Shown: one piece after another, positions 22,312 to 26,055 of the stretch
How positions within the stretch are numbered: the stretch's first letter is position 1
Layout: every line of letters begins with the position of its first letter
Virus genome (UHGV): UHGV-0272533
DNA from: a virus
Strand: one strand, 5' to 3'
DNA: 26,055 nt
Program-made: the position numbers and the translations under genes
Notes under the pieces: generated by a model
What the model was told of the DNA's origin: nothing
The model's database searches: none
Seen by the model: the letters and a program-made list of their open reading frames with translations, nothing else

Positions 22312-23049
22312 TTAACTAACTTTGAATTGAGCAGCTATCAATGAATAATCATCGGTGGGTGTTTTCTTTAAAATACGTTTATACAAACTTGCAGTGAAGC
22401 TACTAACATTACCAAGCGTATTCAAAGAAAAACGAGGTCGATGCTCCCAGAAATGATGTGCACCATCAGACATAATGAAAAGTGTAAGCACTCCGTTATC
22501 GTCTACTATATCAGCCAGTGGCAAAACTACATGCTGATACCGTATCGTCAAACTGCGAGTTAACGCCGCAGTAAGAGTATTCTTTCCTGGCAATTGCTCA
22601 AGCTCTTTTTTAGTATAAAGGCCGTCGTCCAAAAGTTCTTGATGCTGAGTATGGTCCTTTGTGACAAGATTAAGTTTGCCGCCCTTCTTAATGTAAACTC
22701 TGGTATCGCCAACATGAATCACATTCAATTCTTTAGCTGTTAAGAAACAATAAGAAAGAGTTGTTGCCGCTTTAAAATATTCATTATTTAAATTAGACAA
22801 TGCAATAATGTTATTTTGTATTAGCTCCAATGTGAGCTGTGGGTTTAACAATTTTTCTTTATTGAGTTCAGCAAGTTGACTAGTTGCTATATTCGCAGCA
22901 TCTTTGGCTCCAGGATAAGAACCAACGCCATCCGCAACAGCAAAAACAAATGCCCCATCCACTTGCCGAGGTAGCAATATCGCATCTTGATTGTCATGCT
23001 CTACATTTTTTGAGCATGAGAATGCTGCGCAACTCAACAAATTAATCAT
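22312..23049 (-). CDS. PP2C-family (PPM) Ser/Thr protein phosphatase
   Basis: 245 aa; acidic metal-ligand motifs in PP2C order: ED (17-18), AVADGVGS (DG 40-41), GDTR (114-117), SDG (194-196), TDD (232-234). Start ATG overlaps the kinase stop (ATGA). AT-rich codon usage. Confidence 0.7.
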   Translation of the reverse strand: MINLLSCAAFSCSKNVEHDNQDAILLPRQVDGAFVFAVADGVGSYPGAKDAANIATSQLAELNKEKLLNPQLTLELIQNNIIALSNLNNEYFKAATTLSYCFLTAKELNVIHVGDTRVYIKKGGKLNLVTKDHTQHQELLDDGLYTKKELEQLPGKNTLTAALTRSLTIRYQHVVLPLADIVDDNGVLTLFIMSDGAHHFWEHRPRFSLNTLGNVSSFTASLYKRILKKTPTDDYSLIAAQFKVS

Positions 23050-23825
23050 TGCATTGTCCTCGCTATAACACTGTCTAAATCACTGAGCATCTGAGTGACT
23101 GAATCGAATCTAGCATTTGGGACATATGCTGTAGATCTATCCACAATTGCCCCAATCCCGGGAGCATCTTTTAGGTTTAATTCATTTATAATTACACCCA
23201 AAGCATAAATATCTGATTTTTCGGTATATGTCCCACGCTGTGCTTCTGGTGACATGTATTCAGGTGTGCCTATGCCAATTGAACGATCCTGCAAAATATT
23301 TGAAAGAAATGCTGATTGAGCTTCAGAGTTAATTGTCTTAACAAGCCCAAAATCTGAGATTTTATAGCAACCATCAGGGTACATGAGAATATTTTCCGGT
23401 TTCAAATCTCGATGCAAGTAACCATTCCTATGTATGTATTCAACTCCCTTTAGGACCATCCTGAGCATTTCAAGCTTATCGCGTTCAGTCAACACACCTT
23501 CGTTCATCTGTTTACGGAGGTCACATTCAGCTAGTTCCATAACAAACCATGGGTTATCGATGCTAAGATGATGTATGCATACAGGTACAACATTGTCATG
23601 CGTACACTCAGCTTGATACCTGACTTCACGTTCAAATCTTCGCTTCCAATCGTCCAAAGAAAAGAGGTGGTTGATAAGCTTGGGATTCACAGAAAGGACC
23701 TTCCTTGCGTAGAAGCCGCTGAAATGGCCTAACGTATTATAGACTTCAACCTTTTCAACCCGTCCAAAGGTTCCTTGACCCAATTCATCAATCGGTTTGA
23801 TTAAATAATTCCCTCTAGGATCCAT
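23046..23825 (-). CDS. Hanks-type (eukaryotic-like) Ser/Thr protein kinase, minimal catalytic domain
   Basis: 259 aa; Gly-rich loop GQGTFG (16-21), AxK Lys42, catalytic loop HRDLKPEN (138-145), DFG (158-160), activation segment GTPEYMSPE (186-194), DIYALG (205-210). AT-rich relative to flanking genes. Confidence 0.8.
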   Translation of the reverse strand: MDPRGNYLIKPIDELGQGTFGRVEKVEVYNTLGHFSGFYARKVLSVNPKLINHLFSLDDWKRRFEREVRYQAECTHDNVVPVCIHHLSIDNPWFVMELAECDLRKQMNEGVLTERDKLEMLRMVLKGVEYIHRNGYLHRDLKPENILMYPDGCYKISDFGLVKTINSEAQSAFLSNILQDRSIGIGTPEYMSPEAQRGTYTEKSDIYALGVIINELNLKDAPGIGAIVDRSTAYVPNARFDSVTQMLSDLDSVIARTMQ

Positions 23826-23936: not shown

Positions 23937-24428
23937 TTAATCTCTTAAAGAGTTGTAGATACGCTCACATATCATTCCTGCGCGGTAGCTGTCATCAGAT
24001 CGCCCAGCATAGTATCTAGCTTCTTCTGCAATGCTTCCGAGCATGTCGGCGAGCATTGCGGAGTTAGCGCTGGTTGTTTTGCTTCCGACGGCAGCGGCAA
24101 GACCTGCGGTGTGCTTTGCGGCGTCCAGGCGGGTGGCAAGTTTTGTTGCTTCGGTGCGCAGCTGGCTAACAGTGGCAGACAGGCCAGCAGCATTCGCAGC
24201 CGCTTTTGCAGCCTGTTCTTGTGCATTTTTAACAGCCTCATCGCGAGCGATTACTCGCCCTTGTTCAATCATACGAGCTGCGGTCTGTGCATTCGCTTCC
24301 TGTGAAGATTCCGCGCTATCCCGGTCAGCCCACTTTATTTTCCAGCTGCGGTTCGTCCACTCACTGCCAGCGAGAAACGAACCTACCAACGCAACAATCA
24401 CAATGATGCAGATGCCACCCGGCTTCAC
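23937..24428 (-). CDS. Rz: Rz-like inner-membrane spanin (i-spanin)
   Basis: Start placed at GTG 24426..24428 overlapping the endolysin stop (GTGA), with GGGGGA upstream. The ORF is open back to 24521, so the start is uncertain. N-terminal TM segment ([16 protein letters not shown]), then Ala/Gln-rich coiled-coil region. Confidence 0.55.
23972..24241 (-). CDS. Rz1: Rz1-like outer-membrane lipoprotein spanin embedded in Rz in another frame
   Basis: Embedded ORF; lipoprotein signal with lipobox LASC (...[15 protein letters not shown]), followed by a Pro-rich mature region. True start may be the Met at 24224..24226. Confidence 0.55.
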
Positions 24429-24973
24429 TGGTCTATCCCCCAGCACGTCAGTGCGCTTTCCTGGTCCCGCCGTTCTACCTGCCCATAACATCCATCCTTC
24501 TGGCCCTTGGTCAGGCGGCAATCGCGGCCACCGTCTTTAATCCACCAGCGGATAGCTTCACAGGCTCCTTTCGTATCGCCAGCATTAATTCGCTTATAGA
24601 ACGTAGACGGGAAACATTTTCCGGGGCCGATGTTATATGGGCAGAAAGAAGCGATACCCGCTTTCTGTGGTTCGGTCAGTGGTACTTTGATATTTCGGTC
24701 AACCCACGCCAGCGCCTTGTCGCGTTCAATGGCGTTTACCTGGGCGCATTTCTCAGCTGACAGCTTCATGCCCTGTACTACTGGCTTGCCATCAACCATT
24801 GTTGCACCACGGCAAATGGTCCAGAGTCCGCCGCCGTCGCGATATGCTGTCAAGCTGTTACCCTCTTTCTCATCCAGAAACTGATCGAGAATCACGGGTG
24901 CGGAAGCCCCGGCAAGAATCAAACCAACGACCGCTGCGCTCAATTTATTCTTCAGCTTTAGAGACATAGCCAT
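24425..24973 (-). CDS. R: SAR endolysin (T4-lysozyme-family muramidase with N-terminal signal-anchor-release domain)
   Basis: 182 aa; N-terminal Gly/Ala-rich weakly hydrophobic segment ([19 protein letters not shown]); E...D...T catalytic spacing in [25 protein letters not shown]; overlaps the holin 3' end. Confidence 0.8.
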
Positions 24974-25223
24974 TGCGCCGATCCTCCCGTTCTTTCCAGC
25001 GGAAATACCAGTTCACTGCACAGGTGATTACCGTGCATGCGATACCGACAATAATTGCCCAGTCGCTCAGGCTTAACCCTGCAATTCTGTCGGCCAACAT
25101 CCAGGACACCTCTTTTGCTGTTTTAGCTGTTTCGGCATATGCCTTCGCTGATACACCGCAGCCGGTCAGCGTGGTTCCTGTTCCATATGAAAGTCTGCTG
25201 TAAATGGTGCTCATTCTGGTCAT
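24945..25223 (-). CDS. S: Putative holin
   Basis: 92 aa; ATG at 25223 with strong SD GGAGGTG; two hydrophobic segments and a charged C-terminus (KEREDRRNG); first gene of the lysis cassette. Confidence 0.6.
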   Translation of the reverse strand: MTRMSTIYSRLSYGTGTTLTGCGVSAKAYAETAKTAKEVSWMLADRIAGLSLSDWAIIVGIACTVITCAVNWYFRWKEREDRRNGYVSKAEE

Positions 25224-25467
25224 AGCCTCACCTCCGATTTTTCGGATGGCGCTGTGCGTGTATGAAAAGGCTCAGGCTTCACGGGCTGGATTTATCAACA
25301 AAGCACGTAGCGGATGATTCCCGTGAGCCTGAAATGAAAAAGGCCGCCAAGCGGCAGCCAACAGTCGATTCAATACCGGGATATTTATCCACGCCCGGCG
25401 CGTGGTTTCCCTGCTTTCCACAGACAAAGGAAATTGCTAAATTGGTCATTCCACAGACAATTAGGGA

Positions 25468-25884
25468 ATGACCATGGATGTAGGATTACTTATCGCGTCC
25501 CTTAAAAACGGGATCGGCGCGCTTTCTGCTGTGCAAAGTAACGAGGTCCTGCGCGAGCGCATCGCTTTCATTGGAGAGCAGATCGACGTACTTCAAAAAG
25601 CCCATGCTGCCACCATAGCAGAACTTGCCGAGGCGAAAGCCAAGAACGTAGAACTTGAGAAGGAAATAGCGGCTTATCGGGCAAAGGATGAGTTTGTCGA
25701 GCACATGGGTGCGGCCTTTAGAAAAAATCCCGCGGGTGGGTATATCAGCGCGGTTTATTGCCCCAACTGTCTTAAACAGGTCGGTAGCGGGTTCGATGAC
25801 TTTCCTTACCATTGCGGCTCCTGCGGCTGGACTTCAAGATTTGAAGGAAGGGAGATTGATAGCGTAATGAAAACCCTCCCTTAA
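25468..25884 (+). CDS. Hypothetical coiled-coil / zinc-ribbon protein, antisense to late transcription
   Basis: 138 aa; N-terminal heptad-like region, C-terminal CPNC...CGSC four-Cys motif. Start may be the second ATG at 25474 (AGGGA 7 nt upstream). Followed by a hairpin at 25891..25910. Confidence 0.45.
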   Translation: MTMDVGLLIASLKNGIGALSAVQSNEVLRERIAFIGEQIDVLQKAHAATIAELAEAKAKNVELEKEIAAYRAKDEFVEHMGAAFRKNPAGGYISAVYCPNCLKQVGSGFDDFPYHCGSCGWTSRFEGREIDSVMKTLP

Positions 25885-25920
25885 TGTTAAGGCGAGGGTA
25901 GCGCCTCGCCGTTACCTCCA

Positions 25921-25956
25921 GAAACGCAAAAGCCCCACGGTGTTATCCGCGGGGCT
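25921..25956 (-). terminator. tR'-like intrinsic terminator just downstream of the late promoter
   Basis: Minus strand: AGCCCCGCGG-AUAACA-CCGUGGGGCU stem-loop (one mismatch) followed by UUUUGCGUUUC. Confidence 0.5.
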
Positions 25957-25976
25957 TGAAACGAAGGCATTAACCC

Positions 25977-26016
25977 ATCGTTGGGATAAAATTAACACAG
26001 ATTCGGGAAAAGTAAA
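25977..26016 (-). promoter_or_regulatory. pR'-like late promoter with sigma70 pause element (Q-utilisation region)
   Basis: Minus strand: TTTACT (26011..26016), 16 nt, TAATTT (25989..25994), 6 nt, then AACGATGGGTTAAT (25977..25982 onward). This matches the recalled lambda pR' layout TTGACT-17-TAAATT-TGACTC-AACGATGGGTTAAT. Confidence 0.55.
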
Positions 26017-26055
26017 TAGCTGGAATTAACTTCCATAGCCGTTATCGTGTTATTT

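Follow-up and report, generated by a model that had tools for sequence, protein, structure and literature searches.

A P22-type compact late leader at the pR'-like promoter adjoining the Q gene of a lambdoid prophage

Introduction

The leader RNA made from the late promoter pR' of phage lambda, the 6S RNA, is 194 nt long. Late-gene control cassettes of this kind have been defined as comprising a Q gene, the promoter PR', a sigma-dependent pause element, a terminator and the late genes (PMC9388147). Q-lambda binds its site, the Q-binding element (QBE) located between −35 and −10, loads onto the polymerase at the pause and forms, together with NusA, a nozzle on the RNA exit channel, through which the RNA threads at 14–16 nt; the zinc 'arm' of the protein touches the QBE and sigma region 4 (PMC9388147). 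In lambda, sigma-70 engages the −10-like hexamer once 13 nt of RNA have been made, after which the complex scrunches to +16, and the position of the pause is set by the G/C-rich segment following the hexamer; in phage 82 the pause is at +25 (PMC5001585). The Q21 (PF06530) and Q82 (PF06323) cassettes follow the same logic, with a Q gene, pR', a sigma-dependent pause, a terminator and late genes, and their Q proteins are unrelated to Q-lambda (PMC9388147).

A compact version of the late leader is annotated in phage P22. Its curated RefSeq record marks 'P late or P R'' together with a qut-like site and places the 5' nucleotide of the RNA on the first A of an AACGAT hexamer; 't late or t R'; antiterminated by gene 23 protein' spans +31 to +59. 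In Stx phages, the pR'-tR' leader RNA StxS is constitutive in lysogens, has a length of 258 nt and is processed to 74 nt, and its Hfq binding and targets have been demonstrated (PMC7547250).

Here we compare these systems with the right end of a stretch of 26,055 nucleotides of viral DNA (UHGV-0272533), the whole of which is called the window. An earlier reading of this sequence, the original prediction, had proposed a pR'-like late promoter with an unusually short distance to its terminator.

Late promoter and pause element

Window positions 25200–26055 are 100% identical to phage HK225 (JQ086371 / NC_019717). The HK225 record annotates 'late gene regulator Q', a 'rho-independent terminator' on the hairpin described below, a convergent hypothetical gene, holin, lysozyme and Rz, and leaves the promoter and the pause element unannotated. 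The same arrangement is present in a prophage of E. coli HH107 (NZ_CP116405), the chromosome of which is 100% identical to window 25900–26055; of 5426 complete E. coli genomes, only 47 carry the stretch. Elsewhere the window consists of lambdoid late sequence closest to mEp237 (97%; HK225, 93.5%), and it is therefore a mosaic related to both phages and not HK225 itself. The promoter, the pause element and the hairpin are all read from the minus strand (Table 1).

Table 1. Features at the right end of the window and in the adjoining late region
Feature	Position	Strand	Basis
Q antiterminator gene, final 14 nt (..ATA ACA CGA TAA; I T R stop)	26055-26042	-	100% identity to HK225
-35, TTTACT	26016-26011	-	read from sequence; lambda/P22 counterpart TTGACT in alignment
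Promoter spacer TTTCCCGAATCTGTGT, 16 nt, candidate Q-binding element for HK225-type Q	26010-25995	-	position of lambda QBE
Extended -10, TGtTAATTT (TG 25997-25996, TAATTT 25994-25989)	25997-25989	-	read from sequence
Pause element AACGATGGGTTAAT with predicted RNA start (+1 = 25982)	25982-25969	-	14/14 exact match to lambda
Small 5' leader hairpin, +1 to +23, AACGA with UCGUU (~+19 to +23)	25982-25960	-	predicted fold
tR' intrinsic terminator hairpin, +26 to +53	25957-25930	-	scan, folding; rho-independent terminator in HK225 record
U-rich tail TTGCGTTTCT, extends TT closing the stem	25929-25920	-	terminator scan
Convergent 138-aa gene	25468-25884	+	phrog_1244 (unknown function)
Second terminator-like hairpin	25342-25359	-	terminator scan; fold −14 kcal/mol, z = −3.3
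Holin	24945-25223	-	PF16080/PF04971
Lysozyme	24425-24973	-	PF00959
Rz-like ORF	23937-24521	-	PF10721 (DUF2514) only; 'lysis protein Rz' is the HK225 record's name

A scan for the exact 14-mer of the pause element gave 122 matches, namely 120 IMG/VR stretches, HK225 and phage Louie. A filter for promoter context kept 51 of these; the other 71 were discarded as apparently unrelated sequence, no −10-like hexamer being located 6 nt ahead of the 14-mer. Conservation was measured in a set of 51 distinct relatives, in which the −35 hexamer is 94–100% conserved and each position of the spacer carries the majority base in 80–100%. The −35 and −10 elements taken together are 90–100% conserved and align with those of lambda and P22 pR'. 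The −10 is separated from AACGAT by 6 nt, and the lambda −10 (TAAATT) lies at the identical distance. A generic sigma-70 consensus scan called no promoter in 24000–26055, since TAATTT agrees with TATAAT at only three of six positions, and the promoter assignment therefore rests on homology and conservation. From its sequence, the element reads as a pR'-type late promoter with a −10 that is weak by consensus. The spacer differs in sequence from that of lambda and, judging by its position, is a candidate Q-binding element.

The pause element contains AACGAT as a −10-like hexamer at +1 to +6, directly followed by GGG as discriminator. The window contains no second match, even at a tolerance of two mismatches, for which 0.12 matches are expected by chance; for the exact 14-mer the expectation is about 2e-4 in 2 x 26 kb (52,110/4^14). 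A four-way alignment shows that the block shared with lambda begins just before +1, is identical from +1 to +14, continues as partial similarity to +23 (TCGTT) and is lost beyond about +23. A comparison with lambda pR' had been proposed as a check, and a pR'-type late promoter with a lambda-type pause element is supported. Both the hexamer and the GGG agree with lambda, as does the C at +16, while +15 and +17 are changed (+15 to +17 is TCG in lambda versus GCC here). A sigma-70-dependent pause is expected near +16 (about 25967), although its exact position could differ because of these changes. In the P22 record, the annotated 5' end of the RNA coincides with the first A of this hexamer.

Terminator and leader RNA

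The hairpin downstream of the pause element has 11 pairs, eight of them G-C, with a 6-nt loop and a G-C core from +28 to +51. Folded alone it reaches −21.7 kcal/mol (z = −4.9; none of 200 shuffles was as good), and the 68-nt leader as a whole reaches −29.2 kcal/mol (z = −3.75; none of 200 shuffles was as stable). The U-tract behind the stem is interrupted (UUUUGCGUUU). The terminator scan calls the hairpin on the minus strand only, as no U-tract follows the stem on the plus strand. Release of the RNA is predicted at about +57 to +61, which would give a terminated RNA of about 57–61 nt. A candidate tR' hairpin about 25–55 nt downstream, as claimed originally, is indeed present if the first A of AACGAT is taken as +1, and the expectation of a terminated RNA much shorter than the 6S RNA agrees with the predicted size.

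In an alignment of 43 distinct sequences, 99.6% of the cells of the tR' helix are paired. The changes seen are G-C to G-U and U-A, with one double change. The covariation test is weak, with the observed value reached in 32 of 500 shuffles, because the sequences compared are close. P22 has A-U where one pair of the present stem is C-G, so that pairing is kept.

The small hairpin at the 5' end of the leader is predicted in 11 of 15 different leaders of the Q-lambda family, including those of lambda, P22 and SfV, compared with 5–27% of shuffled leaders that pair their 5' end. In ES18, AACAG and UUGUU stand at the matching places, a possible compensatory change; the minimum-energy fold of that leader is without this pairing. 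A search against Rfam returned nothing above threshold, the SpF01 match on the leader having 24 bits versus a gathering score of 55. This match, like the sub-threshold isrK match further downstream, was treated as noise or terminator-driven.

The adjoining Q gene

The right edge of the window cuts the end of the Q gene. The body of the gene lies outside the window and is known through identical records. In HK225 the 271-aa Q gene (L001, 1699–2514) ends at record position 42846, which corresponds to window 26042, and the Q gene of E. coli HH107 ends at the same window-equivalent position. A Q gene just past the right edge had been anticipated, and these two records supply it. HK225 Q matches the Q-lambda family PF03589 (E = 3e-47) and the Q-lambda structure PDB 7UBM (E = 1.6e-49), and shows no match to the Pfam families of Q21 (PF06530) or Q82 (PF06323). 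Its identity to Louie's lambda-type Q is 34%, and relative to lambda Q it carries a 66-aa insertion in the zinc-ribbon region. We observed that this insertion gives four CxxCxGxG-like motifs with a sub-threshold match to the DnaJ zinc domain, and that the insertion, located in the zinc 'arm', co-occurs with a different promoter spacer.

Many relatives (L126–L202) have a hairpin about 1–40 nt past the Q stop codon, directly upstream of −35, the T-rich tail of which is the −35 region itself (e.g. GCTCACGG..CCGTGAGC followed by TATTTACTTTT). This hairpin might halt read-out from Q ahead of pR'. The window itself has no more than a weak GGAA..TTCC stem (26021–26033).

Comparison with described late leaders

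The locus has the same architecture as that of P22 and a homologous leader. P22 has AACGATGG at +1, a small AACGA/UCGUU 5' stem and a GCCC..GGGC hairpin with a U-tract, and takes the same two-hairpin fold; lysis genes lie downstream and the antiterminator is of the Q-lambda family (tblastn, 33.8% identity to HK225 Q over the whole protein). Unlike the window, P22 has a lambda-type spacer (QBE) and a Q of 207 aa instead of 271 aa. The hairpin of the window starts 3 nt nearer to +1 than that of P22 and differs at some stem positions, with pairing kept. Alignment, annotation and fold together place the locus among the P22-type short late leaders, with tR' ending about 50–60 nt from +1. The feature is therefore an already known P22-type compact late leader, and the compact layout is annotated in both P22 and HK225.

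Lambda shares with the window the Q family, the identical sequence from +1 to +14 and the −10 distance. In contrast, its hairpin ends at about +186, its spacer is different and its Q is without the 66-aa insertion. Homology to the lambda 6S leader (+15 to +194) is absent in the alignment beyond about +23. At the sequence level the locus agrees with the general cassette in its adjoining PF03589 Q gene, pause element, intrinsic terminator and same-strand late genes, with a candidate promoter of the pR' type ahead of the pause element. PF03589 is the only Q family matched, which sets the locus apart from the Q82 and Q21 cassettes; an alignment with phages 82 and 21, as originally suggested, has no bearing on it, their Q proteins being of other families (PMC9388147). 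The predicted leader resembles StxS in that it would be made from pR' and terminated at tR' in lysogens; StxS differs in its demonstrated Hfq binding and targets. StxS was ruled out as a precedent for the short distance, as its primary transcript is 258 nt long.

Conservation and exchange of the leader

The distance between promoter and terminator had been called unusually short. This holds against lambda only and not in general, given that the P22 tR' lies at +31 to +59. In SfV, ES18 and mEp460, an annotated or evident terminator likewise implies leaders of about 60–70 nt. We further examined the 80 Q genes in IMG/VR most closely related to that of HK225 (tblastn, 76–100% identical) and found the same hairpin at the same place in 63 of them; in most of the others another terminator occupies about +34 to +65. 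In a set of 97 distinct promoter-plus-leader sequences, the hairpin ends at +49 to +51 in 56 of the 71 with an HK225-type promoter and at +183 to +186 in 23 of the 24 with a lambda-type promoter. These ends were called with a fold-based terminator finder, adopted since a simpler one missed the imperfect tR' of lambda; it misses a few near terminators, e.g. that of L126. The long leader of lambda is thus the less common layout among the Q-lambda-family phages sampled, in which compact leaders of about 55–70 nt are common, and the 194-nt 6S leader is not typical. In mEp460 (L207, ~1662–1740) a tRNA-like gene was seen by eye directly downstream of the short tR'.

In the 51 distinct relatives the fraction of the majority base is 0.88–0.98 from −35 to about +56 and drops to 0.39–0.54 right after the U-tract. 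This sharp drop indicates that promoter, pause element and terminator form one conserved unit, the right edge of which is a mosaic boundary. Two natural recombinants complete a 2x2 table of these parts. Phage Louie combines a lambda-identical Q, promoter and spacer with a short leader of the present type, and the IMG/VR contig L168 combines an HK225-type Q and spacer with the long leader of lambda. The two are reciprocal, and therefore the spacer travels with the type of Q, whereas leader and terminator are an independent module. The recombinant join lies within or just after the shared pause element, and this element acts as a shared joint for the natural exchange of Q/promoter and leader/terminator modules.

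Proposed mode of action and alternative explanations

Taken together, the locus very probably represents the compact version, typified by P22, of the Q-dependent cassette that controls the late genes of lambdoid prophages. The known mechanism of the family suggests the following course of initiation, pausing, termination and Q-dependent read-through. RNA polymerase with sigma-70 would initiate at pR' (+1 = window 25982, minus strand), sigma-70 would bind again at the −10-like AACGAT within the initially transcribed DNA, and the polymerase would pause near +16. Without Q, the polymerase would escape from the pause and terminate at the hairpin and U-tract (+26 to about +61), so that a two-hairpin RNA of about 57–61 nt would be released and the late genes would stay off. 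With Q present, this 271-aa protein of the Q-lambda family, encoded directly upstream, would bind the promoter spacer and load on the paused polymerase, which would become terminator-resistant. The antiterminated polymerase would then cross tR', the convergent gene and the second hairpin and proceed into the lysis genes and about 20 kb of head and tail genes. As the first arm of the terminator starts at +26 and would be made wholly after loading, the compact leader should pose no mechanistic difficulty. The late operon begins at this feature, the value of which lies mostly in annotating the region correctly.

It could be argued that the hairpin mainly ends other transcripts and is not primarily a Q-regulated tR'. 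It lies 85 nt past the Q stop codon, where any transcript leaving Q, such as early pR-to-Q read-through, would meet it too, and the convergent 138-aa gene ends at 25884 and points towards it, with an A-run ahead of the hairpin stem on the plus strand, so that the hairpin might stop transcripts from both directions. However, the plus strand has GAAACGAAGG after the stem instead of a U-tract, which agrees with the scan calling the minus strand only. Moreover, the hairpin is conserved as a unit with promoter and pause element in relatives without the convergent gene (mEp237, P22), and the curated P22 record labels the homologous hairpin tR'. Stopping of transcripts that read through from Q is compatible with the Q-dependent cassette and is no alternative to it, and we regard a primary role in ending other transcripts as very improbable. 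The negative promoter scan and the end of the window before the Q gene might suggest that the locus resembles lambda pR' by chance, or that it is a dead relic within a prophage that is defective. The low chance expectation of the pause element, both exact and with up to two mismatches, and the −10 spacing shared with lambda speak against this reading. Likewise, the identical sequence in HK225, deposited as a phage genome, the 98.3% identity downstream of −35 in Louie, a phage from sewage inflow, and the conservation of the block in dozens of relatives count against it. It is already effectively refuted and its probability is negligible.

The short two-hairpin RNA, which would be made constantly in lysogens, might also act in trans as a regulatory small RNA like StxS, which demonstrates that pR'-tR' leader RNAs can acquire Hfq-dependent regulatory roles (PMC7547250). 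Its predicted form would suit such a role, as a stem-loop at the 5' end is joined by a brief unpaired linker to the terminator stem and its U-tail, and the leader is highly conserved. This conservation is, however, fully explained by the pausing and termination signals in DNA and RNA, almost no unpaired sequence is left as a seed, and no Rfam family exceeds its threshold, so that we consider a StxS-like function in addition to the Q-dependent switch quite unlikely. More broadly, there is a small chance that the short leader is more than a stop signal, either through a 5' hairpin that is a selected RNA element or as a ~58-nt RNA acting in trans like StxS. Were this true, the 5' hairpin could, for example, lock the RNA outside the Q nozzle or stabilise the late transcript.

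Late region downstream of the leader

The protein encoded by the convergent gene consists of a coiled-coil followed by CxxC..CxxC; it matches phrog_1244 only, with no hit in Pfam or PADLOC. A direct repeat of TTCCACAGACAA is located just upstream of this gene (25416–25460) and might be a regulatory site. At the site of the gene, mEp237 has about 1 kb of unrelated DNA, which indicates that the interval between tR' and holin is a swap site. The second hairpin coincides with the right edge of this site. It reads GGCUGCC..GGCGGCC followed by UUUUUCAUUU, and the late transcript would cross it about 120 nt ahead of holin. The isrK match overlapping it (25337–25414) has 21 bits, below the Rfam threshold of 50.

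Terminase, portal and tail genes follow the lysis genes on the same strand. A Ser/Thr protein kinase (PF00069; PADLOC models PD-T4-6 and mad6) followed by a PP2C phosphatase (22312–23825, minus strand) separates the Rz gene from the packaging genes. This kinase and phosphatase could be a prophage-borne anti-phage defence pair.
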